A stretch of DNA of 13,558 bases from a virus (IMGVR_UViG_2690315994_000032), one strand, 5' to 3'; shown: positions 698 to 13,558, numbered from the stretch's first letter. Notes: generated from the letters alone by a model not told the origin. A program made the numbers and translations.

Positions 698-1060
698 GGG
701 GCTGATTCTGGATTCGACGGGATTTGCGAAACCCAAGGTGCATGCCGAGGGGCGGTTGGCCTCGTAAAAAGCCGCAAAAAATAGTCGCAAACGACGAAAA
801 CTACGCTTTAGCAGCTTAATAACCTGCTTAGAGCCCTCTCTCCCTAGCCTCCGCTCTTAGGACGGGGATCAAGAGAGGTCAAACCCAAAAGAGATCGCGT
901 GGAAGCCCTGCCTGGGGTTGAAGCGTTAAAACTTAATCAGGCTAGTTTGTTAGTGGCGTGTCCGTCCGCAGCTGGCAAGCGAATGTAAAGACTGACTAAG
1001 CATGTAGTACCGAGGATGTAGGAATTTCGGACGCGGGTTCAACTCCCGCCAGCTCCACCA
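698..1060 (+). ncRNA. ssrA: tmRNA (transfer-messenger RNA, SsrA)
   Basis: 363-nt sequence starting GGGGCTGATTCTGGATTCGACGGG and ending GGTTCAACTCCCGCCAGCTCCACCA. It has the tRNA-like acceptor/T-arm ends and an internal tag frame, and matches the E. coli tmRNA as I recall it. Confidence 0.96.
787..819 (+). other. tmRNA tag-peptide reading frame (resume codon GCA; encodes ANDENYALAA, stop TAA)
   Basis: GCA AAC GAC GAA AAC TAC GCT TTA GCA GCT TAA read directly from the sequence inside ssrA; this is the canonical enterobacterial degradation tag. Confidence 0.9.
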
Positions 1061-1070
1061 AATAAATCAA

Positions 1071-1099
1071 GGGGTTACGTGAAAGCGTAGCCCCTTTTT
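1071..1099 (+). terminator. Rho-independent terminator downstream of ssrA
   Basis: GC-rich hairpin GGGGTTACG-tgaaag-CGTAGCCCC followed by TTTTT, 10 nt after the tmRNA 3' CCA. Confidence 0.75.
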
Positions 1100-1118: not shown

Positions 1119-1157
1119 ATGGCGACAGACTTTTGCGTCCATCTTGCCTGTCGCCAT
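1119..1157. repeat. Perfect 10-bp inverted repeat ATGGCGACAG-N19-CTGTCGCCAT (candidate operator or structured leader)
   Basis: Arms at 1119-1128 and 1148-1157 are exact reverse complements, read directly. The element ends 27 bp upstream of the ATG of the 160-aa ORF. Confidence 0.5.
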
Positions 1158-1183
1158 CTTGAAATCATGCAAAGAGGTTTGAC

Positions 1184-1666
1184 ATGGAAGAACTTCACTT
1201 TGTTTACATCAATGCAAATGGTCGTATCGGTGTTCACTCAATACAGAGCATCAGTTATAGCGAAAATCACATACAGGGCATTTGTAAGAACACCGATCGA
1301 ATAAAAACCTTCCGAAAAGACCGCATTCTTAAACAATACGATTCACAAGAACAAGCCATTCAGGAATGCGCGTCATTCCTCCCCGAAAACTACTCACATC
1401 TCACTAAGCAGTCAGGTCCGAAAAAAAATACATTCGATGTGTGTTTCACCGGATTTAAGAAAGCAGATAAAGAAAGGTTGGTTGATAAGGCGAATGAACA
1501 AGGATTAACGGTAAGAACATCTGTAACCCAAAACCTTCAGATGCTCTGTTGCGGTTACAATGCAGGCCCATCAAAAGTATCGGCAGCCAGGATGAAAGGC
1601 ACTATCATCATAGATGAGCCTGGCTTTATACATTTTCTTGAAACGGGTGAGATCCCAGATGAATAA
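1184..1666 (+). CDS. Hypothetical 160-aa protein with WYL-like N-terminal and BRCT-like C-terminal domains (accessory/cargo gene at the prophage end)
   Basis: ORF with good SD (AAGAGG at 1172-1177, 6-nt spacer to ATG 1184). Visibly AT-rich compared with flanking genes. N-terminal segment YINANGRIGVHSIQSISYSENHIQGICKNTDRIKTFRKDRI fits the WYL-domain pattern; C-terminal segment FDVCFTGF...GLTVRTSVTQNLQMLCCGYNAGPSKVSAARMKGTIIIDEPGF fits a LigA-type BRCT motif. Domain calls are by motif recognition only. Confidence 0.7.
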   Translation: MEELHFVYINANGRIGVHSIQSISYSENHIQGICKNTDRIKTFRKDRILKQYDSQEQAIQECASFLPENYSHLTKQSGPKKNTFDVCFTGFKKADKERLVDKANEQGLTVRTSVTQNLQMLCCGYNAGPSKVSAARMKGTIIIDEPGFIHFLETGEIPDE

Positions 1667-1694
1667 AAACCTGCCGTAGCAGGTTCTCTTTCTT
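1665..1694. terminator. Bidirectional rho-independent terminator between convergent ORF160 and ogr
   Basis: Hairpin ACCTGC-cgta-GCAGGT (1669-1684) flanked by an A-run upstream and a T-rich run downstream, placed exactly between the two convergent stop codons. Confidence 0.6.
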
Positions 1695-1911
1695 AAAAAT
1701 TCATATGGCCCTGACCACCTGGCAATGGATGTGGAGGGGCTGTGGCAATCACTGCAGGTGTCACAATAAACCGGACCACTGTTTCATGGGTAACAAAAGT
1801 GCTCCCGCAGTTAATATTTTGGCACTGGCAGTAACGCTCTTTGGTGCTTTCTGTTACTTGAAAACTGCTCCTTGTGTGCGCCGCATGACCACACTTTGGA
1901 CAATTCATCAT
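1693..1911 (-). CDS. ogr: Ogr/Delta-family zinc-finger late-gene transcriptional activator
   Basis: Translation MMNCPKCGHAAHTRSSFQVTESTKERYCQCQNINCGSTFVTHETVVRFIVTP...PHPLPGG has the C-x2-C...C-x4-C zinc-finger arrangement and length (about 72 aa) of P2 Ogr. The six-frame ORF extends to 1956, but the MM start at 1911/1908 matches the Ogr N-terminus. Confidence 0.85.
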   Translation of the reverse strand: MMNCPKCGHAAHTRSSFQVTESTKERYCQCQNINCGSTFVTHETVVRFIVTPAVIATAPPHPLPGGQGHMNF

Positions 1912-1979
1912 ATCCAGATCCCTACCTTTGCTATCAGAATCATTGCAATGATACACAAGATATCAATATTGAGAACCAT

Positions 1980-3080
1980 TTATTCCATTTCAAGATCACT
2001 AATTTTCACTTCAAGTTCAATACTGGTCGTAAAACCGTTATCCGGGCTGACGGTATGTGTCAGAGTCGTAATGGTCCATTCCGCATCATCTATTGGCTGT
2101 TTAAAGCCACTGACCTTCACAGGCATTTCCGTGTAGAGATCTGCCCGACCTTCCGCCAGTTGTAGCGAGAATGACGCAACACCGCGTTGCAGGCGTTCCC
2201 ACTGCATTTTCGCCGCTCGTTCGGCGTTGCTCCGGTTGGCATAAGTGCGATTAAGTACCAGCACGTTTTCATCCGTCCCCACCAGATAATCGCCCTGCTT
2301 CGCTTCCGGCTCTTTCTTCTGCTTCTTAGTTCTGCGCTTACGCTTCACCGTGGTGCTTTCTTTCTTCGCGGGTTCGCGGGTATGCAACCAGCTGGCAATG
2401 ACGCCCGTATAGGCTCCGCGATCTGCCAGGGTAAAGCGGTGACTGTCGCCGTCCTTACGCGTGATAGTGATCACCGGCAGTGGTTTACCGCTGGCGCTTT
2501 TGCCCTGTCCCTGCCGGATGAATAACAGATTGCCATTTTTCACCGATGCAATAGCACCGTACTGGCGCGCCAGTCGCATCAGAAAACTGCCGTCACTCTC
2601 ATTGGTCTGGTCTATATGTTCCACGGGTTTATCTGACAGGTCTTTACCCAATGCCATCTTCAGTTTGTGCCGTGCAGCTATTTCCTTCACCACTTCCCCA
2701 ACGGTGGTCTTGTGCCACGACTTTTCACGGCGGGTATTCAGCGTTTCACGAAAATCAGCACTTCGCGCCCGGATAGTCAGGCGGTCCGGTGCGCCAGTGT
2801 GTTCAATCTCGTCCACCGTGAATGCCCCTTTCGGGAAAAGCGGCTGCCCCTTCCAGCCCAGCGCCAGCGTAATAACCGCACCACGGCGCGGCAGCACGAT
2901 TTTTCCGTCGGCGTCGTCCAGCTCCAGATCAAGCTGGTCTGCTTCAAAGCCCCGATTGTCCGTCAGCGTCAAACTCATCAGGCGGTTATCCAGCACAGTG
3001 GTGATATCCCTGCCCTCAATACTGATGCTGAATGCGGGAGTTTTGTTGCCTTTGTTAAGCAGTTCAGAGCTGAAATTCAC
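1980..3080 (-). CDS. D: Phage late control / tail protein D (P2 gpD family)
   Basis: 366-aa ORF at the position and orientation expected after U in P2 synteny. Start is GTG at 3080-3078, overlapping the U stop as GTGA, with GGGAGGG SD upstream. Family assignment by recall of gpD-like sequence features. Confidence 0.85.
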   Translation of the reverse strand: MNFSSELLNKGNKTPAFSISIEGRDITTVLDNRLMSLTLTDNRGFEADQLDLELDDADGKIVLPRRGAVITLALGWKGQPLFPKGAFTVDEIEHTGAPDRLTIRARSADFRETLNTRREKSWHKTTVGEVVKEIAARHKLKMALGKDLSDKPVEHIDQTNESDGSFLMRLARQYGAIASVKNGNLLFIRQGQGKSASGKPLPVITITRKDGDSHRFTLADRGAYTGVIASWLHTREPAKKESTTVKRKRRTKKQKKEPEAKQGDYLVGTDENVLVLNRTYANRSNAERAAKMQWERLQRGVASFSLQLAEGRADLYTEMPVKVSGFKQPIDDAEWTITTLTHTVSPDNGFTTSIELEVKISDLEME

Positions 3081-3562
3081 GACAGCAGCCCTCCCACCGT
3101 TTTACTGATATCGCTTAAGGCAGACGTTGCCGTGTCCTGCAGATTATTCAGTTGCGCACTGAGATCACCGAACATATCGGACAGGGATTCATCCACCCGT
3201 TTGAGCGACAGGGTGAACTCAATCCGGCGCGGCATACCGTCGCGGAAAAACTCCGTTTTAGTCTGATTCAGTCCCTCAATCACATACATGCCGTAAATCG
3301 TGCCGCTGCCTTCAATCAGGGGCCATGCTTTCCCCTGTTCTGCCATCTGCTCCAGTACCAGCAACGACAGCCTGCCGCCTGTTATCTCCGGCATAAGAAC
3401 ACCAGAAAGCGTCAGCATGTCGTTGTCCGGTCCCAGAAACTGCGTGGACGGACGTCGGTTGACCCGGCTGTTTGCCGCATGTCGCCAGCTGCGTTGATAC
3501 TGCAGTTCCTGATACGGCACAGTGCGCAGCATAAACACGTACAATCCCAGCACCATCATCAT
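3077..3562 (-). CDS. U: Phage tail protein U (P2 gpU family)
   Basis: 161-aa ORF starting MMMVLGLYVFMLRTVPYQELQ, typical of P2 gpU. ATGA overlap with the T stop; located between T and D. Confidence 0.88.
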   Translation of the reverse strand: MMMVLGLYVFMLRTVPYQELQYQRSWRHAANSRVNRRPSTQFLGPDNDMLTLSGVLMPEITGGRLSLLVLEQMAEQGKAWPLIEGSGTIYGMYVIEGLNQTKTEFFRDGMPRRIEFTLSLKRVDESLSDMFGDLSAQLNNLQDTATSALSDISKTVGGLLS

Positions 3563-6500
3563 GCGTCGTATCCCCCCTGATCGCTGTAGTTACTCCTGGC
3601 TTTTGCCTTCAGCCTGCGTTCACGTTCATCAAGCTGGCGTGCCACCTCCCGCGCAATATCCTGCGCACTTTGTCCTGGCTGCGTCTGGATGATGATCTGC
3701 GTCGGTGCCTCAATCCGTTGAGCGGGCGGCACAGTGGCTGCACGACTCACCATCGCTTCGCCGCCTTTCGCGGGAAGTGCCAAAGGATGTAACGGCGGAA
3801 GCTCTGCAGGCGCGGCAGCAACGCCCATCATTCCGGCAACAACGGCAGCCAGTGCAGCTGTATTTCTCCGACTGGTCACGTTTGCCGGACCGTTGACAAT
3901 TTCAGGCCCGTTTTCACCGACAATGCCGAACTGCCCGCGCGGGATATAGCCGCCGCTGTCATACATCCCCGCAAAGCCATATCCCCATGACGGAAAACCA
4001 CCCGATGGCATCATCACTTTACCGTCTGCATTCACCGTCGCAGGTTGCTGACGCGTCACGCTTTCCGGCAGTTTCGCCTTTGCAGCCTCTTTACTGACAA
4101 TACCGAGTTTCTCCAGCAACCAGGAAACGCCGGATTTCAGGGAGTCCAACGGATGCATGACCATATTCAGCCCTTCCGCCAGTGCCTCCCCGAATCGTCG
4201 CCCCATTGCCGCTGCGCTCTGCAGTTCGGCAGAGGTCGACTTAACAGGCGTCAGCAGATCAGTAAACCAGCCCCACAACGCCTGTACTTTGTCGCCAATC
4301 CACTGGAACACGGGCTTAAGCGGTTCGAATGCAGCACTGATGGGACCTGCCGCCGCTTTGAATCCTTCCACCACGCCACCGAGAAATGCGGTGATGGGTT
4401 GCCAGTATTTCCAGACAACCAGCGCCACGCCCGCCAGTGCAGTAACCACAAGACCTATCGGACTGAGCAGAGCACCTAACAGACCAGATACGGCATACAG
4501 GGCAACGCGCAGCATCGCCAGCGGACCGGATGCCAGCACACGCAGCACCGCGCCTGCGGCAGCCAGTCCACCGCGTAGTGCTGCCAGTGGATTCATAAAC
4601 ATCACAGCAACCGCACGTAAACCGGATAATCCAGACCGCAACAGTGCAACCGGCACACCTGCTACAGTTTTCAGGACATTCCCCGTCAGTGATGCGGTGC
4701 GGCGCAAAGACGACAACGGCGCAGTAAGTAAACCCGCTGCGTTGCCCGATGAAGCAAGCCCGCGTCGCAGCAGTGCCAGTGGAGCGCCAGCTAACCAGGA
4801 CAACGCGCTGCTGGTTCGTGTTACTGCTGCCGTAACGGAAGGTAACGTTTTGATACCCAGCACAGAGAATCCCAGACGGATGACTGCCAGCGGCCCCAGC
4901 ACTGCAGCCAGCGCCACCGCTAAGGTGCCGAGGCCTACGGTAACCGCAGCCACAACAGCCGCTACTTTCATCAGTGTGCCTGTCAGTTCCGGGTTAGCTT
5001 CCACCCAGCGGCGCAACGCCCCCGTGATGCTTTTTACCGTGTACAGAATATCCATCAGCGGCTGGCGCAGCGTTTCGCCCAGGCTGCTGAAGGTGTTCTG
5101 CGCTCCGGTTTTGACCAGCAACCACTGAGCGGAAAGTGAGTCTTTGTTGATGTCGGATTCTTTCTGCATGGAACCGAGCGCATCATTGCCCGCTGTCAGT
5201 TTTAGCTGGCGCTGCAGTTCCGGAAGGTTGTTTGCCAGTTTCGCTGCATCATCACCAAACTCTTTACCAAACAACATGGTCATGGCAGACAGACGCTTGT
5301 CCTGCGGCAGTGCGTTCACCTTCTCCAGCACACGCTGGATAGTTCCCATCGCATCCTTCGTCATCTGCTTTTCAATCACTTCAGGATTGAGTTTCAGCAG
5401 ATTCATCCCTTCAAAGAAACTCTTACTTTGCATGGTGGCAATGGACAATTCACGCACCATCGCGTTTGCTGCACTGGCAGCAACCTCCGGCGCAGCGCCC
5501 AGTGTCAGGAAGGTGGAACCCAGCGCCGCCGCTTTACGATAATCCAGACGATCTGCCACACCGCCCAGGCGTTGCATGACATCAATGATGTCTGACCCTT
5601 TCGACATGGCGTTATCATCCAGATAGTTCAGCGCATCACCGAGCTGTTCAATATTGCGGGTAGGGATTTTGTAGAGCTGGGCGATTTTCCCCAGACTTTC
5701 TGACAGTTCATCCGCTGGCAGCTCAAAGGCTGTTGCCGCCTTTGCTGCCGTGCTGGCGAAGGCCAGCAGGTCACGTTTCTGGTCTTCCCAGCTGTCGTCA
5801 GGATTTGCGACGTTCATGCGCGCACCACCTTCAACCAGTGCGGCAAAGTCCACAGCACCGTTTTCCATCGGCAACTGTTCGCTGGCAGCCTTGATGGCAT
5901 CCTGCATTTCGTAAAAACGCGCAGTGCGGTTGCCATTATCATCACGCAGACCATTGACCTGCTTTGCCACACCTTTCATGGCATCTTCCATGCTGGTATA
6001 GCTTTTTACTGCTGCCATCACTGGCGCACCCATTGCCAGCCCTGCAGCCGTGGTAGTGGCTCCGGCTCCTGCGATGCGATCGCGCACTTCAAGCCGTCTT
6101 GAGTATTGTTCTCTGGCAGCGTTCATCCGTGCCTGTTGTTCACCCAGACGTTTAAGTGCTTTTTGCTGGCCCTCCAGTGCCTGCCTTGTTTCTTCAGCAT
6201 TTTTCTTAAGTTCTCGCTGGGCACTACTGAGTTGTCTGGTATCAATCCCTGATTCTTTAAGTGCCTGACGTTGTCTCTGGACCGCCCCCAACAAGCCGTT
6301 ATAGGTCTGCTGAAGTTCCTGTACTCGTGTTTTGGCCTGACTGAATAACTTTGCCTGCGCGGCGGTTGGCCTGTTAGTGGCAGCAAATTGTGTGGCGAGT
6401 TTTGCCGCCTCTTCGCGGGCTGCGTTCAGGTTGTTGGCTGTTATGGCTAGTTGCGAGCGCGTCTTGCGAAATTCATCAATTCTGCCAGCCTGCTTATTCA

Positions 6501-6636
6501 GTTCTTTGAGGCTGTTTCGGGTATACTGAATTGCGCCAGCCAGCTCTTTCGAACTGGCCTGTGCAACACGGAATGGGCGGGTGAGTTTGTCAACCGCATT
6601 AAGAATGACCTGCAGCCGCAGGTTGTTATCACTCAT
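3559..6636 (-). CDS. T: Tail tape measure protein (P2 gpT family)
   Basis: 1025-aa ORF. N-terminal half is coiled-coil-like (Q/A/K/E/R-rich heptad-like sequence), the central and C-terminal part carries hydrophobic Gly/Ala/Leu-rich repeats (…ALLRRGL…, …ALLRSGL…) and a GYGFAGMYDSGGYIPRGQFGIVGENGPE motif. Lies between E/E' and U. Confidence 0.9.
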   Translation of the reverse strand: MSDNNLRLQVILNAVDKLTRPFRVAQASSKELAGAIQYTRNSLKELNKQAGRIDEFRKTRSQLAITANNLNAAREEAAKLATQFAATNRPTAAQAKLFSQAKTRVQELQQTYNGLLGAVQRQRQALKESGIDTRQLSSAQRELKKNAEETRQALEGQQKALKRLGEQQARMNAAREQYSRRLEVRDRIAGAGATTTAAGLAMGAPVMAAVKSYTSMEDAMKGVAKQVNGLRDDNGNRTARFYEMQDAIKAASEQLPMENGAVDFAALVEGGARMNVANPDDSWEDQKRDLLAFASTAAKAATAFELPADELSESLGKIAQLYKIPTRNIEQLGDALNYLDDNAMSKGSDIIDVMQRLGGVADRLDYRKAAALGSTFLTLGAAPEVAASAANAMVRELSIATMQSKSFFEGMNLLKLNPEVIEKQMTKDAMGTIQRVLEKVNALPQDKRLSAMTMLFGKEFGDDAAKLANNLPELQRQLKLTAGNDALGSMQKESDINKDSLSAQWLLVKTGAQNTFSSLGETLRQPLMDILYTVKSITGALRRWVEANPELTGTLMKVAAVVAAVTVGLGTLAVALAAVLGPLAVIRLGFSVLGIKTLPSVTAAVTRTSSALSWLAGAPLALLRRGLASSGNAAGLLTAPLSSLRRTASLTGNVLKTVAGVPVALLRSGLSGLRAVAVMFMNPLAALRGGLAAAGAVLRVLASGPLAMLRVALYAVSGLLGALLSPIGLVVTALAGVALVVWKYWQPITAFLGGVVEGFKAAAGPISAAFEPLKPVFQWIGDKVQALWGWFTDLLTPVKSTSAELQSAAAMGRRFGEALAEGLNMVMHPLDSLKSGVSWLLEKLGIVSKEAAKAKLPESVTRQQPATVNADGKVMMPSGGFPSWGYGFAGMYDSGGYIPRGQFGIVGENGPEIVNGPANVTSRRNTAALAAVVAGMMGVAAAPAELPPLHPLALPAKGGEAMVSRAATVPPAQRIEAPTQIIIQTQPGQSAQDIAREVARQLDERERRLKAKARSNYSDQGGYDA

Positions 6637-7065
6637 CGTTGGCCCCGCTTCTCTGAATCGCTTTATACCGCCATTCCAGCACTTCGGTCAGCGGCATAAC
6701 GTCAGTAACGGATGGCGGCCAGTGAAAGATGGTGGCGATATCAGCCACCAGATCGTCAACCGTCAGGCTGTCGGTAAACCGGCAAGCACCGACTTCTTCA
6801 ACAAAAAAGTGACAACCTCAACCGACATGGCAGTGAGATCTGCCGGGTCCATCTCTGCAATTTCCTGTGCAGTCAGTGCCGGACTGGAGATACGGGGGAT
6901 CACGGTCATCATCGCGTTCACATCCATATCCATAATGGCCTGCAGGCGTGTACCGCGCAGCGCACCGGACTGCGGTTTACGCAGCACAATTTCGGTGATT
7001 TCTGTTTTACCGCGCTTGATGGGAGTATCCAGTTGAATAGTCTTTTCAGTCTGCTTATCGCTCAT
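6629..7065 (-). CDS. E+E': Tail assembly chaperone E+E' made by programmed -1 ribosomal frameshift
   Basis: Hand translation of the -1 frame from the slippery site gives 58 stop-free codons (VEEVGACRFTDSLTVDDLVADIATIFHWPPSVTDVMPLTEVLEWRYKAIQRSGANDE) ending at TGA 6631-6629, just before the T start codon. Same architecture as P2 E/E'. Confidence 0.75.
6763..7065 (-). CDS. E: Tail assembly chaperone E (P2 gpE family), zero-frame product
   Basis: 100-aa ORF with AGGA SD upstream of ATG 7065, located between FII and T. Contains the slippery heptamer near its 3' end. Confidence 0.85.
   Translation of the reverse strand: MSDKQTEKTIQLDTPIKRGKTEITEIVLRKPQSGALRGTRLQAIMDMDVNAMMTVIPRISSPALTAQEIAEMDPADLTAMSVEVVTFLLKKSVLAGLPTA
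6802..6808 (-). other. Slippery heptamer T-TTT-TTG for the E/E' -1 frameshift
   Basis: Minus-strand TTTTTTG (plus-strand CAAAAAA at 6802-6808) in the zero frame of E, read directly. Confidence 0.75.
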
Positions 7066-7119
7066 TTTGCTGTCCTGTAAATTGGGTTCTGGCGCGGTAT
7101 CCCGCGCCGTTCAGATACA

Positions 7120-7635
7120 TCAGAGGCCGAGGGCGTTGCGGTGCGCTTCCATCAGGTCCACACCGTCCACAATTTCCACCATGTTGATAAGGTCCACTTC
7201 ATAGAGCACCTCACCATTGATGGTCAGCTTCGCGTAGCTGTTGGTACTGGTCACTTTGGTGGTGTTGCTTTCGCCCGTCTTCCACTCGCCGGAATCCACT
7301 TCTTTGTGACGTCCCAGCACCACAAGCTCCACGGCCTGCACTTCCCCGGTATCGTCACGCTGGATAGAGCCGGTAAAGCGCAGCTGAATGCCATCTACCG
7401 TGGCTTTGCCCATCTGCTTAAACAGCAGCAGTTCAGTACCACCAATGGAAAATTCTGTGTCCAGCGCACTGTCATCAAGCCCCAGATCCACATCCACTGC
7501 ACCCGGCATTCCGCCGCCGCGATACTTCTCATATTTGCGGGTGAATTTCGGCAGCGTCAGCGACTCAACGATCCCCTGCCAGTTGTTCCCGTCGTTAAAC
7601 AGGTTCAGATGTTTTAATTTGCGTGGTAAAGCCAT
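7120..7635 (-). CDS. FII: Tail tube protein (P2 gpFII family)
   Basis: 171-aa ORF beginning MALPRKLKHLNLFNDGNNWQG, immediately downstream of FI in the same orientation. Confidence 0.9.
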   Translation of the reverse strand: MALPRKLKHLNLFNDGNNWQGIVESLTLPKFTRKYEKYRGGGMPGAVDVDLGLDDSALDTEFSIGGTELLLFKQMGKATVDGIQLRFTGSIQRDDTGEVQAVELVVLGRHKEVDSGEWKTGESNTTKVTSTNSYAKLTINGEVLYEVDLINMVEIVDGVDLMEAHRNALGL

Positions 7636-7644
7636 GTTGTCCCC

Positions 7645-8817
7645 TTACGCGCTGACCTGGCTGGCGAAATTCACCAGGTACTGATCGGTGATGCGCTGGC
7701 GCAGCATCAGATTTTCAAGTGGCGGCACTGGCGTGTAGTCATAGTCGATGGTGAGTTTTCCGGCTTTCAGCGTGTCTTTGTCGTTCACCGACTCATCCAG
7801 CCAGCAATCACCACCAATGAGATAGCCCTGACTGACCAGGCTGCGTATTTTGGCGCGGATACCTTCGATAATGTCGCGGGCCAGCGACGGGTTAAGCGGT
7901 TTATCCACCGCCCACATGTGTGCTTCTGCCATTGTGTCCGTCAGCACCTGCGCCGTGCGGGTGTAGTTTTCGAAGGCAAAAAGCGGATCATCGCTCAGAC
8001 AGCGGGAACCCCAGAAGCGGAAACCGTCTTTACGCACAAGCGTGGTGACGTCGTTCTGGTTCAGCAGACCTGCATCGGTTGCCGGGTCCTGCAGATCCCA
8101 GAACACATCTGCAGAAATTCCGGTGACACCGTTCACGCCCACGTTGGACAGGCTTTTGTGCCACCCGGTCTGCTCATCAATTTTGGCACGCAGACCAAGT
8201 GCACGGGCGGTGGCATATGCCGTTGCTTCGGCATTCAGCACCGTGTCCCAGCCAGTAAAGTCGGGCCAGATCAGCATTCCTTCGCGCTGGCTGAAGTTTT
8301 CACGGTAAGTGATCTCCTCCTGTACCGTCTTGCAGCCATACGCTGACAGGTAAGCAAACCCACGCAGGCTTTGCGCCACGCTCAGCAACTCAGTCGCAAC
8401 GGCTTTGTTATCGTGACCTGGCACGCCGAGAATGCGCGGTTTAACGCCGAGCTGTGACTGGGCAGATAACAGAGCTTTCATGCCTGTTTTTTTACCTTCA
8501 GCAGTCACTGCGCCGATGATATTGGTCGTGGTTTCTTCTTCCGTTTCACCCTGCGGCACACGCACAACAACGGTCACGGGTTTTGCCTGGTCAGCGATGG
8601 CATCCAGCGAACGGGCCAGCGTGCCGGACTCACCCGCTTTACCGCTGGCAGTCAGCACATCAGTGATCAGCACAGGTTTGTTAAGAGGAAACATTTTTGC
8701 ATCGGCATCATCGCCCGTGCAGACCATGCCCACGATGGCGGTGCTCACCGTGGTAATGGATCGGGTGCCTTCGTTGACTTCAACAACGCGCACCCCGTGG
8801 TGGTAATCCTGAGCCAT
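7645..8817 (-). CDS. FI: Contractile tail sheath protein (P2 gpFI family)
   Basis: 390-aa ORF beginning [21 protein letters not shown]; perfect AGGAGG SD upstream of ATG 8817. First gene of the FI-FII-E-T-U-D block. Confidence 0.92.
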
Positions 8818-8959: not shown

Positions 8960-9526
8960 TCAGGGGGATTCATTACTCTTATTTGCCGGAAATTTTCTAT
9001 AAATTGTGGAAACACCCACATCAAAAATCAGTGCAATACGCTGTCTTGATTCTCCGGCCTCGAGTAAACGCCCAATCTGTGCCCACTGTTCGGTGGTCAA
9101 CTTAGGACGGCGTCCACCTACTCTGCCTTTGGCACGAGCTGCAGCCAGCCCTGCCCTGGTACGTTCAACTATCAGTTCGCGTTCCATTTCAGCCAGGGCA
9201 CCCATGACATGAAAAAAGAAACGGCCCATTGGGGTACTGGTATCAATACTGTCAGTCAGGCTTCGGAAATTCACACCACGCTGGCGCAACTCCTCTATCA
9301 GCGTAACAAGATGCCGCATACTGCGCCCCAACCTGTCCAGCTTCCAGACAACCAGCGTGTCTCCTGCCGATAGTGTCCTGAGCAGCTTTTTCAGCCCCGG
9401 TCTGTCGGACTTAGTGCCACTGATTTTATCCTCAAAAATCCGCTCACATCCCGCGCAGTTCAGTGCATTACGTTGCAAATCGGTGTTCTGGTCATTTGTT
9501 GACACGCGTACATAGCCAATAAGCAT
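8960..9526 (-). CDS. pin: Serine DNA invertase, Hin/Gin/Pin family
   Basis: Translation MLIGYVRVSTNDQNTDLQRNALNCAGCERIFEDKISGTKSDRPGLKKLLRTLSAGDTLVVWKLDRLGRSMRHL... has the resolvase/invertase catalytic N-terminus (serine in YVRVST) and a C-terminal HTH, closely resembling e14 Pin. The six-frame ORF starts at 9532 (MIM…); ATG 9526 has better SD spacing (GGGGGA, 5 nt). Confidence 0.93.
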   Translation of the reverse strand: MLIGYVRVSTNDQNTDLQRNALNCAGCERIFEDKISGTKSDRPGLKKLLRTLSAGDTLVVWKLDRLGRSMRHLVTLIEELRQRGVNFRSLTDSIDTSTPMGRFFFHVMGALAEMERELIVERTRAGLAAARAKGRVGGRRPKLTTEQWAQIGRLLEAGESRQRIALIFDVGVSTIYRKFPANKSNESP

Positions 9527-9581
9527 GATCATCCCCCTGAATAAAAACCGGAGATGATGCCAGTTAGCCGTTATCTCTGCA

Positions 9582-9651: not shown

Positions 9652-10539
9652 TCAGGCTGCCAGATCATCGTTTCTGATGGAAGCATAATAAGCTTTTTCT
9701 GCTTCTGCCGGAGGGATATGACCCAGCCTTCCCAGCAATCGTCGATTGTTATACCAGTCCACCCACGTGAGTGTGGCCAGTTCCACTTCTGCACGGTTTT
9801 TCCAGCTCTTACGGTGTATTACCTCCGCTTTGTAAAGACCATTGATGCTCTCCGCCATCGCGTTGTCATACGAGTCACCTGTACTCCCTGTTGATGCCAG
9901 CAGTTTTGCTTCTTTTAGTCGCTCCGTATAGGCCAGTGATACATACTGAGAACCTTTATCACTGTGATGGACTGTGCCGGACGGCCGACGGGCCCACAAC
10001 GCCTGCTCCAGTGCATCCAGCACGAATGTCGTTTCCATAGACGATGAGACTCGCCACCCCACGATGCATCCGGCAAACACATCAATGATGAACGCCACAT
10101 AGACGAAGCCCTGCCATGTGCTGACGTAAGTAAAATCAGCCACCCACAGCTGGTCAGGACGTTCTGCCACGAACTGACGGTTTACGCGGTCGCCTGCGGA
10201 AACGGCTTTCCGGCTGACGGTAGTACGGACCTTTTTACCCCGGAGAACACCGGCAAGTCCCATAACCGCCATGAGGCGCGCCACTGTACATCTGGCCACC
10301 CTGATACCTTCGCGTAACAACTGGCGCCAGACTTTACGCACACCGTACACCTGATGATTTTCATCGTATACGCGCTGTATCTCTCTCTTCAGCCAGTCAT
10401 CGCGCTGCGCACGGGCACTGCGTTTATCAGGATGATGTCGCTGTTGCTGACAGTGGTAATACGTTGACGGGGCAATATGCAGTTCACTGCATACCGGTCC
10501 GACCCCGTACTGCTCACGCAGCTTATCCAGCAGTGGCAT
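9652..10539 (-). CDS. IS629 OrfB (DDE transposase catalytic subunit)
   Basis: 295-aa ORF with an integrase-core pattern (…WVADFTYV…, …HHSDKGSQY…, …DNAMAESINGLYKAE…). Its ATG overlaps the OrfA stop as TAATG, next to an A6 run, so an OrfAB fusion by frameshift is expected. Confidence 0.88.
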   Translation of the reverse strand: MPLLDKLREQYGVGPVCSELHIAPSTYYHCQQQRHHPDKRSARAQRDDWLKREIQRVYDENHQVYGVRKVWRQLLREGIRVARCTVARLMAVMGLAGVLRGKKVRTTVSRKAVSAGDRVNRQFVAERPDQLWVADFTYVSTWQGFVYVAFIIDVFAGCIVGWRVSSSMETTFVLDALEQALWARRPSGTVHHSDKGSQYVSLAYTERLKEAKLLASTGSTGDSYDNAMAESINGLYKAEVIHRKSWKNRAEVELATLTWVDWYNNRRLLGRLGHIPPAEAEKAYYASIRNDDLAA

Positions 10540-10865
10540 TATTTTTTCCAGAGGCGGTCGAACTCCGCCTTCGCAAAATAAGCGGAAGCCTGGCGAAGGA
10601 TATCGTTACTGCGGCGCAGTTCACGATTTTCACGTTCCAGCTCTTTCAGACGCTGACGTTCAGCGGTGGTGAATCCACCATCACCACTCCCGGTATCCCG
10701 CTCATGCTGACGAACCCACACACGCAGAGTCTCTGGCGTACAGCCAATCTTTGGGGCAATGGAACAAATTGCCGCCCATTGTGAGTCATATTCGCCCTGA
10801 CTTTCCAGAACCATACGAACTGCCCGTTGACGGACCTCGGGGGAAAAACGTGTATTTTTAGTCAT
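10539..10865 (-). CDS. IS629 OrfA (HTH transposase subunit)
   Basis: 108-aa ORF with HTH region and leucine-zipper-like C-terminus ([25 protein letters not shown]), typical of IS3-family OrfA. Confidence 0.88.
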
Positions 10866-10920
10866 CCTGTTTACCTCTTTCTCAGGGAGTTTAGTCTCCA
10901 GGATTCCCGGGGCGGTTCAC

Positions 10921-11403
10921 AGCTTCCTGCCTTATCTCGCCTGGGCGTTCTCTGTGGATCGCTGGGACGAGGGCTGGACAGAAAGCGTCAAACGCCAGGT
11001 AGTGAAGGATGCTTTTTATATTCATCAGCATAAAGGAACTACCAGTGCCGTGCGGCGGGTGGTGGAACCGTTCGGATTCCTGATCCGCATTATTGAGTGG
11101 TGGCAGACCGGAGAAACACCGGGCACGTTTCGCCTGGATATCGGCGTGCAGGACCAGGGCATCACTGAAGATACCTATCTGGAACTTGAGCGGCTGATAA
11201 GCGATGCCAAACCATGTAGCCGTCACATGATCGGCATGTCCATCAATCTGCAGACCAGCGGTCCGCATTGGGTGGGGGCCGCCAGCTATCTTGGCGAAGA
11301 AATCACGATCTATCCGTATATCAACGAAACAATTATTTCCGGCGGCACCGCGCATGAAGGCGGGGCGGTCCATGTTATTGACACAATGAGAGTGAATCCA
11401 TGA
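10921..11403 (+). pseudogene. I: Baseplate assembly protein I (P2 gpI family), 5'-truncated by IS629
   Basis: The reading frame is open from the first base after the IS end (SFLPYLAWAFSVDRWDEGW…) with no in-frame start upstream; the six-frame ORF begins only at an internal GTG (10954). The translation resembles the gpI region …LLPWLAWAFSVDRWDE… as I recall it, so the N-terminus is missing. Stop overlaps the H start as ATGA. Confidence 0.75.
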
Positions 11404-12956
11404 GCACAAAATTTTATACCCTGCTGACGGATATTGGCGCGGCGAAACTTGCCAGCGCCGCCGCGCTCGGTGTGCCGCTAAAAATTACCCATATGGCGGT
11501 GGGCGATGGCGGCGGAACATTGCCAACGCCGGACGCCAAGCAGACAGCATTGGTAAATGAGAAACGCCGGGCTGCGCTGAATATGCTCTATATCGACCCG
11601 CAGAACAGCAGCCAGATTATTGCTGAACAGGTGATCCCTGAAAACGAGGGCGGTTGGTGGATACGTGAAGTGGGCCTGTTTGATGAGTCCGGGGCATTGA
11701 TTGCCGTGGGCAACTGCCCGGAAAGCTATAAGCCGCAACTGGCTGAAGGCAGCGGGCGTACCCAGACCGTGCGCATGGTGCTGATTACCAGCAGCACGGA
11801 CAATATCACCCTGAAAATCGACCCTGCCGTAGTGCTGGCAACCCGCAAGTATGTGGATGACAAGGTACTGGAGCTGAAGGTGTACGTGGATGATCAGATG
11901 GCAAAACATCTTGCCGCACCGGACCCGCATTCACAGTATGCACCCAAAGAAAGTCCGACGTTTACCGGGACACCAAAAGCGCCAACTCCAGCGGCAGGGA
12001 ATAACACCACGCAGGTTGCGACCACCGCGTTTGTTCAGGCGGCACTGACGGCTCTTATTAATGGTGCGCCAGCCACGCTGGACACGCTGAAAGAAATAGC
12101 CGCAGCCATTAACAATGATCCGAATTTCAGTACCACCATTAACAATGCGCTGGCACTGAAAGCGCCGTTGTCGAGTCCGGCACTCACCGGAACGCCAACA
12201 GCCCCCACTGCTGCACAGTCGGTCAACAATACACAGATTGCCACCACGGCTTTTGTGAAATCGGCGATTGCAGCAATGGTAGGTTCTGCACCTGCGGCAC
12301 TGGATACACTGAACGAACTGGCGTCGGCGTTGGGGAATGATCCGAACTTTGCCACGACAATGCTTAATGCGCTGGCAGGTAAACAACCGCTGGACAATAC
12401 GCTGACTAATTTGAGTGGAAAGGATGTCGCTGGTCTTCTCGCATACCTTGGTTTGGGAGAAGGTTCTGCATTACCCGTTGGTGTGCCTGTTCCGTGGCCT
12501 TCCGCCACTCCGCCAACAGGCTGGCTGAAATGCAACGGTGCGGCTTTTTCTGCTGAAGAATACCCGGAACTGGCAAAGGCTTACCCGACCAATAAATTGC
12601 CTGATTTACGCGGTGAATTTATTCGTGGCTGGGATGACGGTCGCGGGATTGATACTGGTCGCGCTTTGCTTAATTGGCAGCCACACACAATTTTGGACCA
12701 TGCACACTATATGGAATTATGGACAGGGGACGGACTCGCCGCAGGAAGTGCACGGGAAGGAGTAAACCCAGGAATACTGGCTACATACGGTGACGGGGGA
12801 ATAGTTAAAACGGACGAACCCGGTCTTAAGGTGCCTTCCTCACTACGAGCTATTAGCTCTCGTAGTGTTAAACGTTATGGTGAAATTAGTGAAAATGTAG
12901 GTACAGAAACTCGTCCTCGTAACATCGCTTTTAATTATATTGTGAGGGCCGCATGA
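11400..12956 (+). CDS. H: Tail fibre protein (P2 gpH-like N-terminus; C-terminal tail-collar/receptor-binding module)
   Basis: 518-aa ORF. N-terminus MSTKFYTLLTDIGAAKLASAA…MAVGDGGG… is gpH-like. Middle has two tandem copies of the conserved fibre repeat (…TGTP.APT…NNTQ.ATTAFV…LDTL.E.A.A..NDPNF.TT..NALA.K.PL). C-terminus has collar motifs (GWLKCNGAAFSAEEYPELAKAYP…LPDLRGEFIRGWDDGRGID). Confidence 0.9.
   Translation: MSTKFYTLLTDIGAAKLASAAALGVPLKITHMAVGDGGGTLPTPDAKQTALVNEKRRAALNMLYIDPQNSSQIIAEQVIPENEGGWWIREVGLFDESGALIAVGNCPESYKPQLAEGSGRTQTVRMVLITSSTDNITLKIDPAVVLATRKYVDDKVLELKVYVDDQMAKHLAAPDPHSQYAPKESPTFTGTPKAPTPAAGNNTTQVATTAFVQAALTALINGAPATLDTLKEIAAAINNDPNFSTTINNALALKAPLSSPALTGTPTAPTAAQSVNNTQIATTAFVKSAIAAMVGSAPAALDTLNELASALGNDPNFATTMLNALAGKQPLDNTLTNLSGKDVAGLLAYLGLGEGSALPVGVPVPWPSATPPTGWLKCNGAAFSAEEYPELAKAYPTNKLPDLRGEFIRGWDDGRGIDTGRALLNWQPHTILDHAHYMELWTGDGLAAGSAREGVNPGILATYGDGGIVKTDEPGLKVPSSLRAISSRSVKRYGEISENVGTETRPRNIAFNYIVRAA
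11952..12395 (+). repeat. Tandem duplication (2 x about 222 bp, 74 aa) inside tail-fibre gene H
   Basis: Two successive units starting AGTCCGACGTTTACCGGGACACC (11952) and AGTCCGGCACTCACCGGAACGCC (12174), encoding SPTFTGTPKAPT… and SPALTGTPTAPT… with roughly 60% protein identity by eye. Unit boundaries are approximate. Confidence 0.6.
12436..12461. other. 26-bp gix/pix-like invertase crossover site B (TTCTCGCATACC-TT-GGTTTGGGAGAA) inside gene H at the constant/variable junction
   Basis: Same architecture as site A; right half-site and TT core are identical to site A. Encodes …LAYLGLGEG…, immediately before the collar/receptor-binding C-terminus, matching the Sc/Sv junction position in Mu/P1/e14-type switches. 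Confidence 0.7.
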
Positions 12957-13558
12957 TGAATAAAGCTGTATTAAATAGCGAACTCATTGCCATAAAAGCG
13001 GGAGATATTACCGTTTATAATTATGATGGTGAAACGCGGGAATATATTTCTACATCAACTGAATATCTCGCTGTCGGCGTCGGTATCCCGGCATGTTCCT
13101 GTCTGGATGCACCAGGTACACATAAAGCTGGTTATGCAATCTGTCGCTCTGTAGATTTAAATTCATGGGAATATGTGCCAGACCATCGCGGTGAAGTTGT
13201 CTATAGTACCGAAACGGGAGATACCAAAGAAATCACAGTTCCGGGTGATTACCCTGAAAATACAACCACTATCGCCCCATTAACGCCATACGATAAATGG
13301 GATGGTGAGAAATGGGTGACGGATACCGAGGCACAGCATAGCGCCGCACTAGACGCGGCAGAAGTAAAGCGCCAGTCGCTGATTGATGCTGCAATGGCTT
13401 CCATCAGTCTGATTCAACTGAAATTACAGGCCGGGCGGAAGCTGACGCAGCCAGAAAACACCCGACTTAACGCTGTGCTGGATTATATTGACGCGGTGAC
13501 GGCAACAGATACCAGCACAGCGCCGGACGTCATCTGGCCTGAACTGCCGGAGGCGTAG
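12953..13558 (+). CDS. G: Tail fibre assembly chaperone (P2 gpG / Mu U / Tfa family)
   Basis: 201-aa ORF with ATGA overlap to the H stop and GAGGG SD. The C-terminal region (…QSLIDAAMASISLIQLKLQAGRKLTQPENTRLNAVLDYIDAVTATDTSTAPDVIWPELP) is the conserved Tfa chaperone motif. The stop codon is the last 3 bases of the window. Confidence 0.88.
   Translation: MMNKAVLNSELIAIKAGDITVYNYDGETREYISTSTEYLAVGVGIPACSCLDAPGTHKAGYAICRSVDLNSWEYVPDHRGEVVYSTETGDTKEITVPGDYPENTTTIAPLTPYDKWDGEKWVTDTEAQHSAALDAAEVKRQSLIDAAMASISLIQLKLQAGRKLTQPENTRLNAVLDYIDAVTATDTSTAPDVIWPELPEA

Follow-up and report, generated by a model that had tools for sequence, protein, structure and literature searches.

The 13,558-nt viral sequence IMGVR_UViG_2690315994_000032 (the window, by which we mean that whole stretch of DNA) begins with smpB (positions 1–483), continues through ssrA and then enters a P2-like prophage whose tail genes lie on the minus strand. 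At the ssrA-proximal end of the prophage lies an open reading frame (ORF) whose product joins a WYL domain to a BRCT domain (Table 1). A first-pass annotation, made from the sequence alone, had described this ORF as a cargo gene oriented against the whole tail operon and more AT-rich than its neighbours. Orientation and composition are as described. The ORF is read on the plus strand and ogr, gpD, gpU and gpT on the minus strand, with gpD (1980–3080), gpU, gpT, tube and sheath following ogr in that order. Its GC content is 41.0% (39.8% at third codon positions, GC3), compared with 53.6% for gpD, 54.5% for gpU, 56.1% for gpT, 47.0% for ogr and 53.2% for the prophage part of the window. We consider it very probable that the protein has this two-domain architecture and that it belongs to the lysogeny module of P2-like phages.

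Table 1. Features around the WYL-BRCT gene, in window coordinates (aa, amino acids)
Feature	Position	Strand	Description
ssrA (transfer-messenger RNA, tmRNA)	698..1060	+	ARAGORN; Rfam RF00023, 295.8 bits
Intrinsic terminator, phage-supplied, directly after the att core	1069..1096	+	12-pair stem with 6 G-C pairs, T-rich tail; conserved at attP of both Cartapus and MLG42
Two direct integrase arm-type sites, putative	TGGCGGCA 1109-1116; TGGCGACA 1120-1127	+	11 bp start to start
Third arm-type site, putative, inverted, TGTCGCCA	1149..1156	-	forms inverted repeat I2 with 1120-1127: 14 nt, 93% complementary
Shine-Dalgarno sequence AAAGAGG	1171..1177	+	6 nt 5' of the ATG; read from the sequence
WYL-BRCT protein gene	1184..1666	+	ATG start, 160 aa plus stop; full-length match to phrog_2561, E = 2.5e-77
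WYL domain, aa 3-52	1190..1339	+	five-stranded Sm/SH3-like beta-barrel; triad N-H-I; T42-F43-R44-K45-D46-R47-I48 signature
Two short helices, aa 55-73, then flexible linker, aa ~74-84	1346..1435	+	secondary structure and per-block confidence (pLDDT)
BRCT domain, RFC1/LigA class, aa 85-154	1436..1645	+	T89-G90 and K131 invariant, K96 nearly so
Hairpin terminator separating the WYL-BRCT gene from ogr, the two being convergent	1668..1685		7-pair stem; T-rich runs on both strands
ogr, late-gene activator	1693..1911	-	Pfam Ogr_Delta, E = 1.3e-20; annotated in the same place in Cartapus; convergent neighbour, last backbone gene of the prophage

That the ORF is a genuine gene, and one under purifying selection, is clear. 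Its product has 122 database homologues (30–98% identity). Against the allele of Escherichia phage 500465-1 the gene shows 8 synonymous and 3 non-synonymous differences (dN/dS ~0.09), and against more distant alleles the proportions of synonymous and non-synonymous differences are 0.72–0.87 (pS) and 0.16–0.20 (pN). In E. coli the gene is accessory and travels with the prophage: it was present in 176 of 5426 complete genomes, and 164 genomes have the window's layout ssrA–ORF–ogr–gpD. It is thus not a backbone gene, an outcome that the first-pass annotation had named as one that would refute its reading. Over positions 1061–2000 the window agrees at 99.8% identity with Cartapus, a temperate Escherichia phage (Peduoviridae, Elveevirus), and the ORF is gp32 of that phage.

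Alignment to the attP regions of Cartapus and of Yersinia phage MLG42 gave uninterrupted identity from position ~1016 onward. The last ~45 nt of ssrA (1016–1060) are thus the att core, and the DNA from there on is phage DNA; the ORF lies in it, at the ogr-proximal att junction, which places it at the prophage tip as first proposed. Directly after the core the phage supplies a terminator, and the record of phage 186 annotates a "terminator of lysogenic operon" just past its own attP core. The transcripts that the terminator in the window would stop are those of ssrA in the prophage and those of the lysogenic operon in the free phage. Between this terminator and the ORF lie two direct octamers and a third, inverted copy. 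The pair is also found on the other attP arm in Cartapus and MLG42, and it resembles the Int arm consensus annotated for 186 (YAYCGCCAYTY) when this is read in reverse complement (RARTGGCGRTR), with a common CGCCA/TGGCG core; the inverted third copy is absent from MLG42. Read most simply, these repeats would be integrase arm-type sites rather than an operator for the ORF product. The inverted repeat had been put forward as a gel-shift target for the protein, and we rejected it as an operator on these grounds: the repeats flank attP on both arms and are like the 186 Int arm sites. Past the arm-type sites, the 3' half of the interval between terminator and start codon is not conserved between Cartapus and MLG42.

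The position of the gene in other phages points to its context. Using tblastn, we found a homologue in 28 phage records, from Escherichia, Yersinia, Mannheimia, Burkholderia, Vibrio and one Pseudomonas phage. Six of the 28 were inspected and are P2-like, and most of the others are P2-like by taxonomy or name, the Pseudomonas record excluded. In most lineages the homologue follows the repressor gene on the same strand at a distance of 3–55 nt. It starts 3 nt past the cI stop codon in Mannheimia phage PHL101; the gene order is cI, homologue, gp03, int in Vibrio phage PV94 and cI, homologue, int in an X. bovienii prophage; and in a Y. ruckeri prophage cI and the homologue are followed by an integrase gene on the opposite strand. 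Yersinia phage MLG42 has the order cI, int, attP, homologue, and Cartapus the order cI, int, RES-domain gene, attP, homologue. In the Burkholderia phages the homologue comes after a ribbon-helix-helix gene and a hydrolase gene and is convergent with gpD.

A locus scan with one genome per species covered 48 genomic loci. The arrangement of the window was common to six close enterobacterial relatives. In at least 12 other loci a CI-like gene ends just upstream of the homologue on the same strand, and these CI-preceded loci span Enterobacterales, Vibrionaceae, Aeromonas, Pasteurellaceae, Marinobacter, Wohlfahrtiimonas, Ignatzschineria and Pseudomonas. Among the co-directional upstream neighbours (n = 31), Phage_CI_repr is present in 8 and HTH_3 in 8, the latter together with Peptidase_S24 in six, so that two unrelated types of repressor precede the homologue. 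Its downstream neighbours are varied, with a leaning towards defence (AbiTii, KAP NTPase, DUF7380 with DUF4209, Mrr, bPH with SHOCT, Phd/YefM) and are followed by integrases. In non-P2 contexts AbiGi and MrcB_N-plus-HNH genes lie upstream of the homologue, and an Mrr_cat gene adjoins a marine homologue.

Two intervals near this position have been described as places where defence genes accumulate: the cI–int interval of K139/PhiO18P-like P2 relatives is a defence hotspot (Rousset et al. 2022, PMC9122126), and the int–att interval is a minor one in P2-like phages (NAR 2026, PMC13586616). Neither paper mentions the WYL-BRCT protein. A model for a lysogen-expressed operon of this kind is the pL operon of phage 186, annotated as cI–int–orf69 and running across attP to the terminator (orf69 itself, which follows int there, was compared and is unrelated to the WYL-BRCT protein). 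Within the operon that lysogens express, the homologue is thus the gene that stays constant, on the repressor-proximal side of a slot for variable cargo. This is a conserved P2-like family that normally stands immediately behind the immunity repressor gene, and the ssrA–ogr position is a lineage-specific relocation across attP. The first-pass reading of the ORF as variable cargo, or a moron, specific to the slot beside ogr was not sustained by this comparison of the interval between phages.

In the E. coli Cartapus lineage, integration puts the gene 123 bp downstream of ssrA. The terminator of the lysogenic operon precedes the gene in both states, in the free phage and in the prophage alike. 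Several records bear on the att region itself. In a P2-like prophage of Pantoea sp. At-9b the WYL-BRCT gene is separated from ogr by two genes, one with a YcaO domain and one a 68-aa ORF (6843–8345 of that locus), so the att–ogr interval can take further cargo; the pair might be a small locus of the ribosomally synthesized and post-translationally modified peptide (RiPP) type. In Cartapus a gene (4631–5836) whose 401-aa product is annotated as NAD+-binding, with a RES domain, lies between int and attP, in the int–att hotspot, and once the phage is integrated it stands at the far end of the prophage from the WYL-BRCT gene. The RefSeq entry for Escherichia phage 500465-1 (NC_049342) is labelled a complete phage genome and includes the host genes smpB, ratA, bamE, recN, nadK and grpE past the att site, which makes it a mis-delimited prophage; it also annotates a 168-nt "hypothetical protein" in the smpB–ssrA spacer.

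An AlphaFold2 model of the protein, built on 46 homologues, has a mean predicted local distance difference test (pLDDT) score of 92 and consists of two domains with a linker of low confidence between them. The linker is the lowest-confidence stretch, and the helix/linker region that contains it is the most length-variable part of the family alignment. The N-domain has an Sm/SH3-like five-stranded barrel fold. Its best-conserved part is Y8 ... G-x-C ... K-T-F-R-K-D-R-I, in which K-T-F-R-K-D-R-I is nearly invariant, and the WYL triad is degenerate (N-H-I in the window protein, Y-I/L-Q in relatives). The window protein matches the PADLOC WYL profile weakly (E = 0.027). Among relatives, the Pfam WYL model was matched by 14 of 30 N-domains (best 2e-6) and by 25 of 59 longer proteins (best 1.2e-8), and the 21.8-bit cut-off was exceeded by P0144 (28.5 bits) and P0196 (27.6 bits). 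Against the PDB, the N-domain profile gave only weak in-register matches to PafBC and PafC (E ~1; "WYFEAYC...VRNFRLDRV" against "xYIQGIC...LKTFRKDRI"). The WYL barrel proposed from the motif, which is present as quoted, is therefore borne out by the fold and by the profile matches of relatives.

The WYL domains of CapW, DriD and PafBC bind or sense single-stranded DNA (ssDNA), which is damage-derived (PMC11662680). The WYL-BRCT protein differs from CapW, BrxR, PafBC and DriD (PF13280) in that it lacks their winged helix-turn-helix (HTH) and WCX domains and carries a BRCT fusion instead, and in that its triad is N-H-I instead of W-Y-L. Its identification as a transcription regulator of the wHTH–WYL–WCX type was rejected: there was no HTH hit and no WCX domain, and the 160 aa are filled by the WYL and BRCT domains.

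The C-domain has the beta-alpha-beta-beta-alpha-beta-alpha fold of BRCT domains. On its own it scores 19.9 bits against Pfam PF00533 (cut-off 21.3 bits, E = 9e-4), and 34 of 46 relatives match the BRCT profile at E ≤ 0.01. The best sequence matches of the family profile in the PDB were RFC1 (2.7e-5) and T. filiformis LigA (7.3e-5), so that the LigA-type BRCT module of the first-pass annotation stands. The phosphate-pocket pattern is present: T/S-G after beta1, a basic residue ~7–8 positions further on and K in alpha2. The F-T-G ... K/R ... G-P-x-K positions of the LigA/RFC1 class align, with T89, G90, K96 (conserved in at least 90% of the family alignment) and K131 falling on the F-T-G, R and G-P-K-K of yeast Rfc1. 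In the BRCT domain of RFC1 these pocket residues hold the 5'-phosphate of DNA. Unlike LigA and RFC1, the present protein has no ligase or clamp-loader body around the BRCT, and its DNA binding is predicted only.

Besides the two recognition folds, neither Pfam nor the AlphaFold2 model revealed a catalytic, HTH or other Pfam domain, and we judge it somewhat more probable than the opposite that the protein binds nucleic acid without catalysis. A fold search of BFVD returned no characterised full-length match. The same architecture was listed, without comment on its function, as a WYL+BRCT fusion by Makarova et al. 2014 (PMC4012209), and the family is that of phrog_2561. We found no functional study of WYL+BRCT phage proteins in the open-access and bioRxiv literature searched, in agreement with the earlier remark that no function had been described for this two-domain arrangement.

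The family is broad. A profile search gave 2625 cluster representatives at E ≤ 1e-3, 201 of them at E ≤ 1e-30. When the architectures of the 150 best representatives were counted, 77 were stand-alone proteins of 153–194 aa, 47 (~31%) had at least one predicted transmembrane helix outside the module, 8 had tandem modules or extra BRCTs, 12 had other extensions and 6 were partial. Membrane-anchored forms occupy the post-repressor slot of P2-like prophages in two Pasteurellaceae (L047, L052) and a betaproteobacterium (L055); in Mannheimia phage PHL101 the slot holds the soluble form instead. A further, uncharacterised domain of ~120–180 aa accompanies the module repeatedly, and several of the tandem forms and of those with other extensions carry it; its motifs are W-x-[VA]-P-x-[AS]-F and F-x-E-G-D-[VIT]-[FIL]-Y ... 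L-Q-V. This EGDxFY domain is fused N- or C-terminally to WYL-BRCT in relatives P0121, P0125, P0128, P0194, P0196, P0244 and P0253 and is encoded by a separate adjacent gene at L025 (7502–8098), L044 (2174–3163) and L059 (5587–6036). It had no Pfam match and no solved relative, with chance-level matches only. We rejected the fusion partners as a clue to function, since Pfam recognises almost nothing in the extensions. L059 also encodes (6056–7222) a 388-aa relative without the WYL domain, in which two BRCTs come after a region that resembles, by eye, TerB-type acidic helical repeats.

Weighing fold and gene position together, we favour the reading that this is a small non-enzymatic protein of the lysogeny module that binds ssDNA and 5'-phosphate junctions and protects the lysogen against incoming DNA. 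We put its probability at about 0.38, and that of a protective or exclusion role as such at 0.35–0.4. The protein would be made in the lysogen and would recognise ssDNA combined with a 5'-phosphorylated junction, as at gaps, nicks, and cohesive or resected ends. Once bound to such structures on incoming or replicating foreign DNA, it would block their sealing or processing, and so exclude superinfecting phages or defend the cell with no enzyme as effector; the membrane-anchored relatives would act near the inner membrane, where DNA enters. A protective role is favoured because the gene sits where exclusion genes sit, because its non-phage neighbours are defence genes and because membrane tethering suits action on entering DNA.

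Lambda rexAB and K139 glo are exclusion genes that are expressed in the lysogen and ride with the repressor. Like them, and like the cargo of the cI–int hotspot, the WYL-BRCT gene comes after the immunity repressor gene and falls within a defence hotspot or at its side. It has no sequence or fold relationship to rexAB or glo, and it is conserved across lineages rather than being interchangeable cargo.

Several observations weigh against this proposal. Expression of the window copy is its weakest link: a consensus scan found no sigma-70 promoter in 1097–1183, and reading the same interval by eye gave weak hexamers only. Since no promoter was found, expression in the window lysogen is assumed, either by read-through from ssrA past the terminator or from a promoter that escaped recognition and overlaps the Int sites. 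The window protein itself has no significant match to Pfam WYL (PF13280), so its membership of that family rests on transitive homology and on fold. The triad-flanking arginines with which CapW contacts ssDNA are absent, replaced by N29 and G33, and the ligand of the WYL half may for this reason differ from that of CapW. No effector domain was found in the protein by Pfam or in the AlphaFold2 model. PADLOC holds no model for the WYL-BRCT family; its PDC-S48 profile (411 positions) was considered and rejected as an identity, since only positions ~322–406, the BRCT, match, as they do in ten longer relatives. Finally, a single family that is conserved in so many P2-like phages looks more like one with a function in the phage life cycle than like a defence moron.

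Next in probability, and in our view unlikely, is a DNA-damage sensor that modulates the lysis–lysogeny switch. Here the WYL domain would sense ssDNA, as those of PafBC, DriD and CapW sense damage-derived ssDNA, and the partner of the BRCT would be the repressor, RecA filaments or the junction at which RecFOR loads, either promoting induction in the manner of an antirepressor or damping spurious SOS induction. The close linkage to the repressor gene fits such a role. RecFOR loads RecA at a junction of the 5'-phosphate type, and the BRCT pocket for such junctions would suit that loading structure. However, the gene follows two unrelated repressors, 186-type CI and the self-cleaving, LexA-like S24 type, which makes a specific repressor partner unlikely, and membrane-anchored variants occupy the same slot. 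Neither upstream of the ORF nor near it was there a LexA box, the whole-window count of such boxes being at chance level, and SOS control of the ORF was rejected on that ground. A DinI/Tum-like gene, moreover, already occupies the true tum position in this prophage family.

The comparison with Tum calls for a correction. The first-pass annotation had placed the tum genes of phage 186 in the equivalent position; in the 186 record there is no gene between B/ogr and attP, and tum (29082–29522) comes after gene A under the LexA-controlled p95 promoter. In the closest complete E. coli genome the corresponding position, after gpA, holds the separate DinI-like gene. Identity with 186 Tum was rejected (BLASTP E = 15, no LexA box, different position), just as no link to Tum had been made at first; the two are alike only in being small accessory genes of P2-like phages. 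Overall, the evidence leans towards a lysogen-expressed protective function rather than an antirepressor, and leaves a damage-sensing regulator and an anti-phage moron as possible roles.

A narrower version of the protective function, which we consider doubtful and somewhat less probable than the damage sensor, is a minimal, effector-less exclusion factor that would bind the single-stranded, 5'-phosphorylated cohesive ends or the unsealed nicks of incoming cos-phage DNA, in its anchored forms near the inner membrane, compete with host LigA, whose BRCT is similar, and so block circularisation of superinfecting genomes.

Three further possible readings fit fewer observations. The protein could regulate, or act as a co-sensor for, the adjacent variable cargo, the BRCT taking the place of an HTH as the link between the WYL domain and DNA. 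The homologue is constant beside variable defence-like genes between cI and int, and WYL proteins such as BrxR and CapW often control adjacent defence loci. Yet the protein has no HTH or WCX dimerisation domain, membrane-anchored forms exist, and many phages have no cargo after the gene (int in X. bovienii, the opposite-strand integrase in Y. ruckeri, the terminator and ogr in the window); we regard this reading as improbable. To the same low degree we credit an anti-defence role for the phage itself, in one of two forms: a WYL sponge would sequester the ssDNA signal on which host regulators of the CapW/BrxR type rely, or a mimic of the LigA BRCT would keep host nucleases away from nicks and ends in phage DNA. 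Many phages do encode small WYL or BRCT proteins that stand alone, and host WYL repressors de-repress defences on sensing ssDNA, prophage induction included; however, placement in the lysogenic rather than an early lytic operon fits this role poorly, and membrane-anchored variants are hard to square with a sponge.

Least probable of the three is that the protein assists integration and excision at attP, as an accessory or architectural factor. The gene adjoins the Int arm-type sites in the E. coli lineage, next to int and attP, but it is not beside int or attP in PHL101, in the Burkholderia phages or in several prophages, its membrane-anchored variants tell against the role, and P2 and 186 integrate without such a protein.

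That the protein is truly a DNA ligase or an exonuclease, as homologues are labelled in the databases ("DNA ligase" in PHROGs and RefSeq phage records, "putative exonuclease" in Cartapus), has a negligible probability and is refuted by its domain content, since only the C-terminal BRCT matches the enzyme models, at 12–26 bits. For NAD+-dependent DNA ligase, LigA models were matched only at their terminal BRCT (positions 547–692; 12–21 bits against cut-offs of 369–1051), and no adenylation (nucleotidyltransferase, NTase), OB-fold, Zn-finger or helix-hairpin-helix (HhH) domain was found in the 160 aa by Pfam or in the AlphaFold2 model. For DEDDh exonuclease, only positions 229–307 of a 331-position model matched (26.4 bits against a cut-off of 389), and the nuclease domain is lacking. 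Both labels derive from the BRCT alone; at a minimum, the annotation should be "WYL-BRCT domain protein".

Other features of the prophage and of its closest complete relative are recorded here in their own right. In the window, an IS3-family (IS1203-like) insertion sequence (IS) at 9652–10900 lies between the invertase gene and the tail-fibre genes; it includes a frameshift pseudoknot (Rfam ALIL, 10468–10584, minus strand, 120.9 bits) and a 295-aa ORF (9652–10539) for an rve-type transposase. The invertase, a serine enzyme of the Hin/Cin/Pin type (Resolvase with HTH_7; 8960–9532, minus strand), adjoins the sheath gene, as in P2-like phages with switchable fibres. The tail-fibre gene (11400–12956), including its conserved N-terminal domain, and the fibre-assembly gene (12953–13558) lie on the plus strand, as opposed to the minus-strand tail operon (1693–8817), an inversion that exceeds the usual inversion of a C-terminal segment. 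Its junction was found in 0 of the 5426 complete E. coli genomes at ≥80% coverage. This suggests an IS-associated rearrangement and possibly a defective prophage. In the closest complete E. coli genome (NZ_CP027462), the prophage cI is annotated as frameshifted (4870–5503), and the gpA–portal hotspot (11313–14259) carries the DinI-like gene followed by a TIGR04255-family gene, an XRE regulator and a hypothetical gene.

The family is not categorically new: the gene stands in public phage records, the fusion has been listed and a PHROG exists. What is undescribed in the papers we found is its placement after the repressor, its anchored and tandem variants, its recurrent partner domain and a WYL sensor without an HTH. 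Few prophages of Enterobacterales are as common as the P2-like ones, whose store of defence genes has been a subject of study, yet a conserved gene of their lysogeny operon has been mislabelled as a ligase or exonuclease. A WYL domain without an HTH, joined to a BRCT of the 5'-phosphate type, represents a different output logic from that of the characterised WYL regulators. If a lysogen protein does bind DNA ends or gaps, this would offer a simple model for non-enzymatic exclusion or for the control of damage signals; and if it competes with LigA, the shift across attP would use integration to place the gene behind the very strong ssrA promoter. If it does not bind DNA in this way, the tight linkage to two unrelated repressor types would still point to an unrecognised step in lysogeny.

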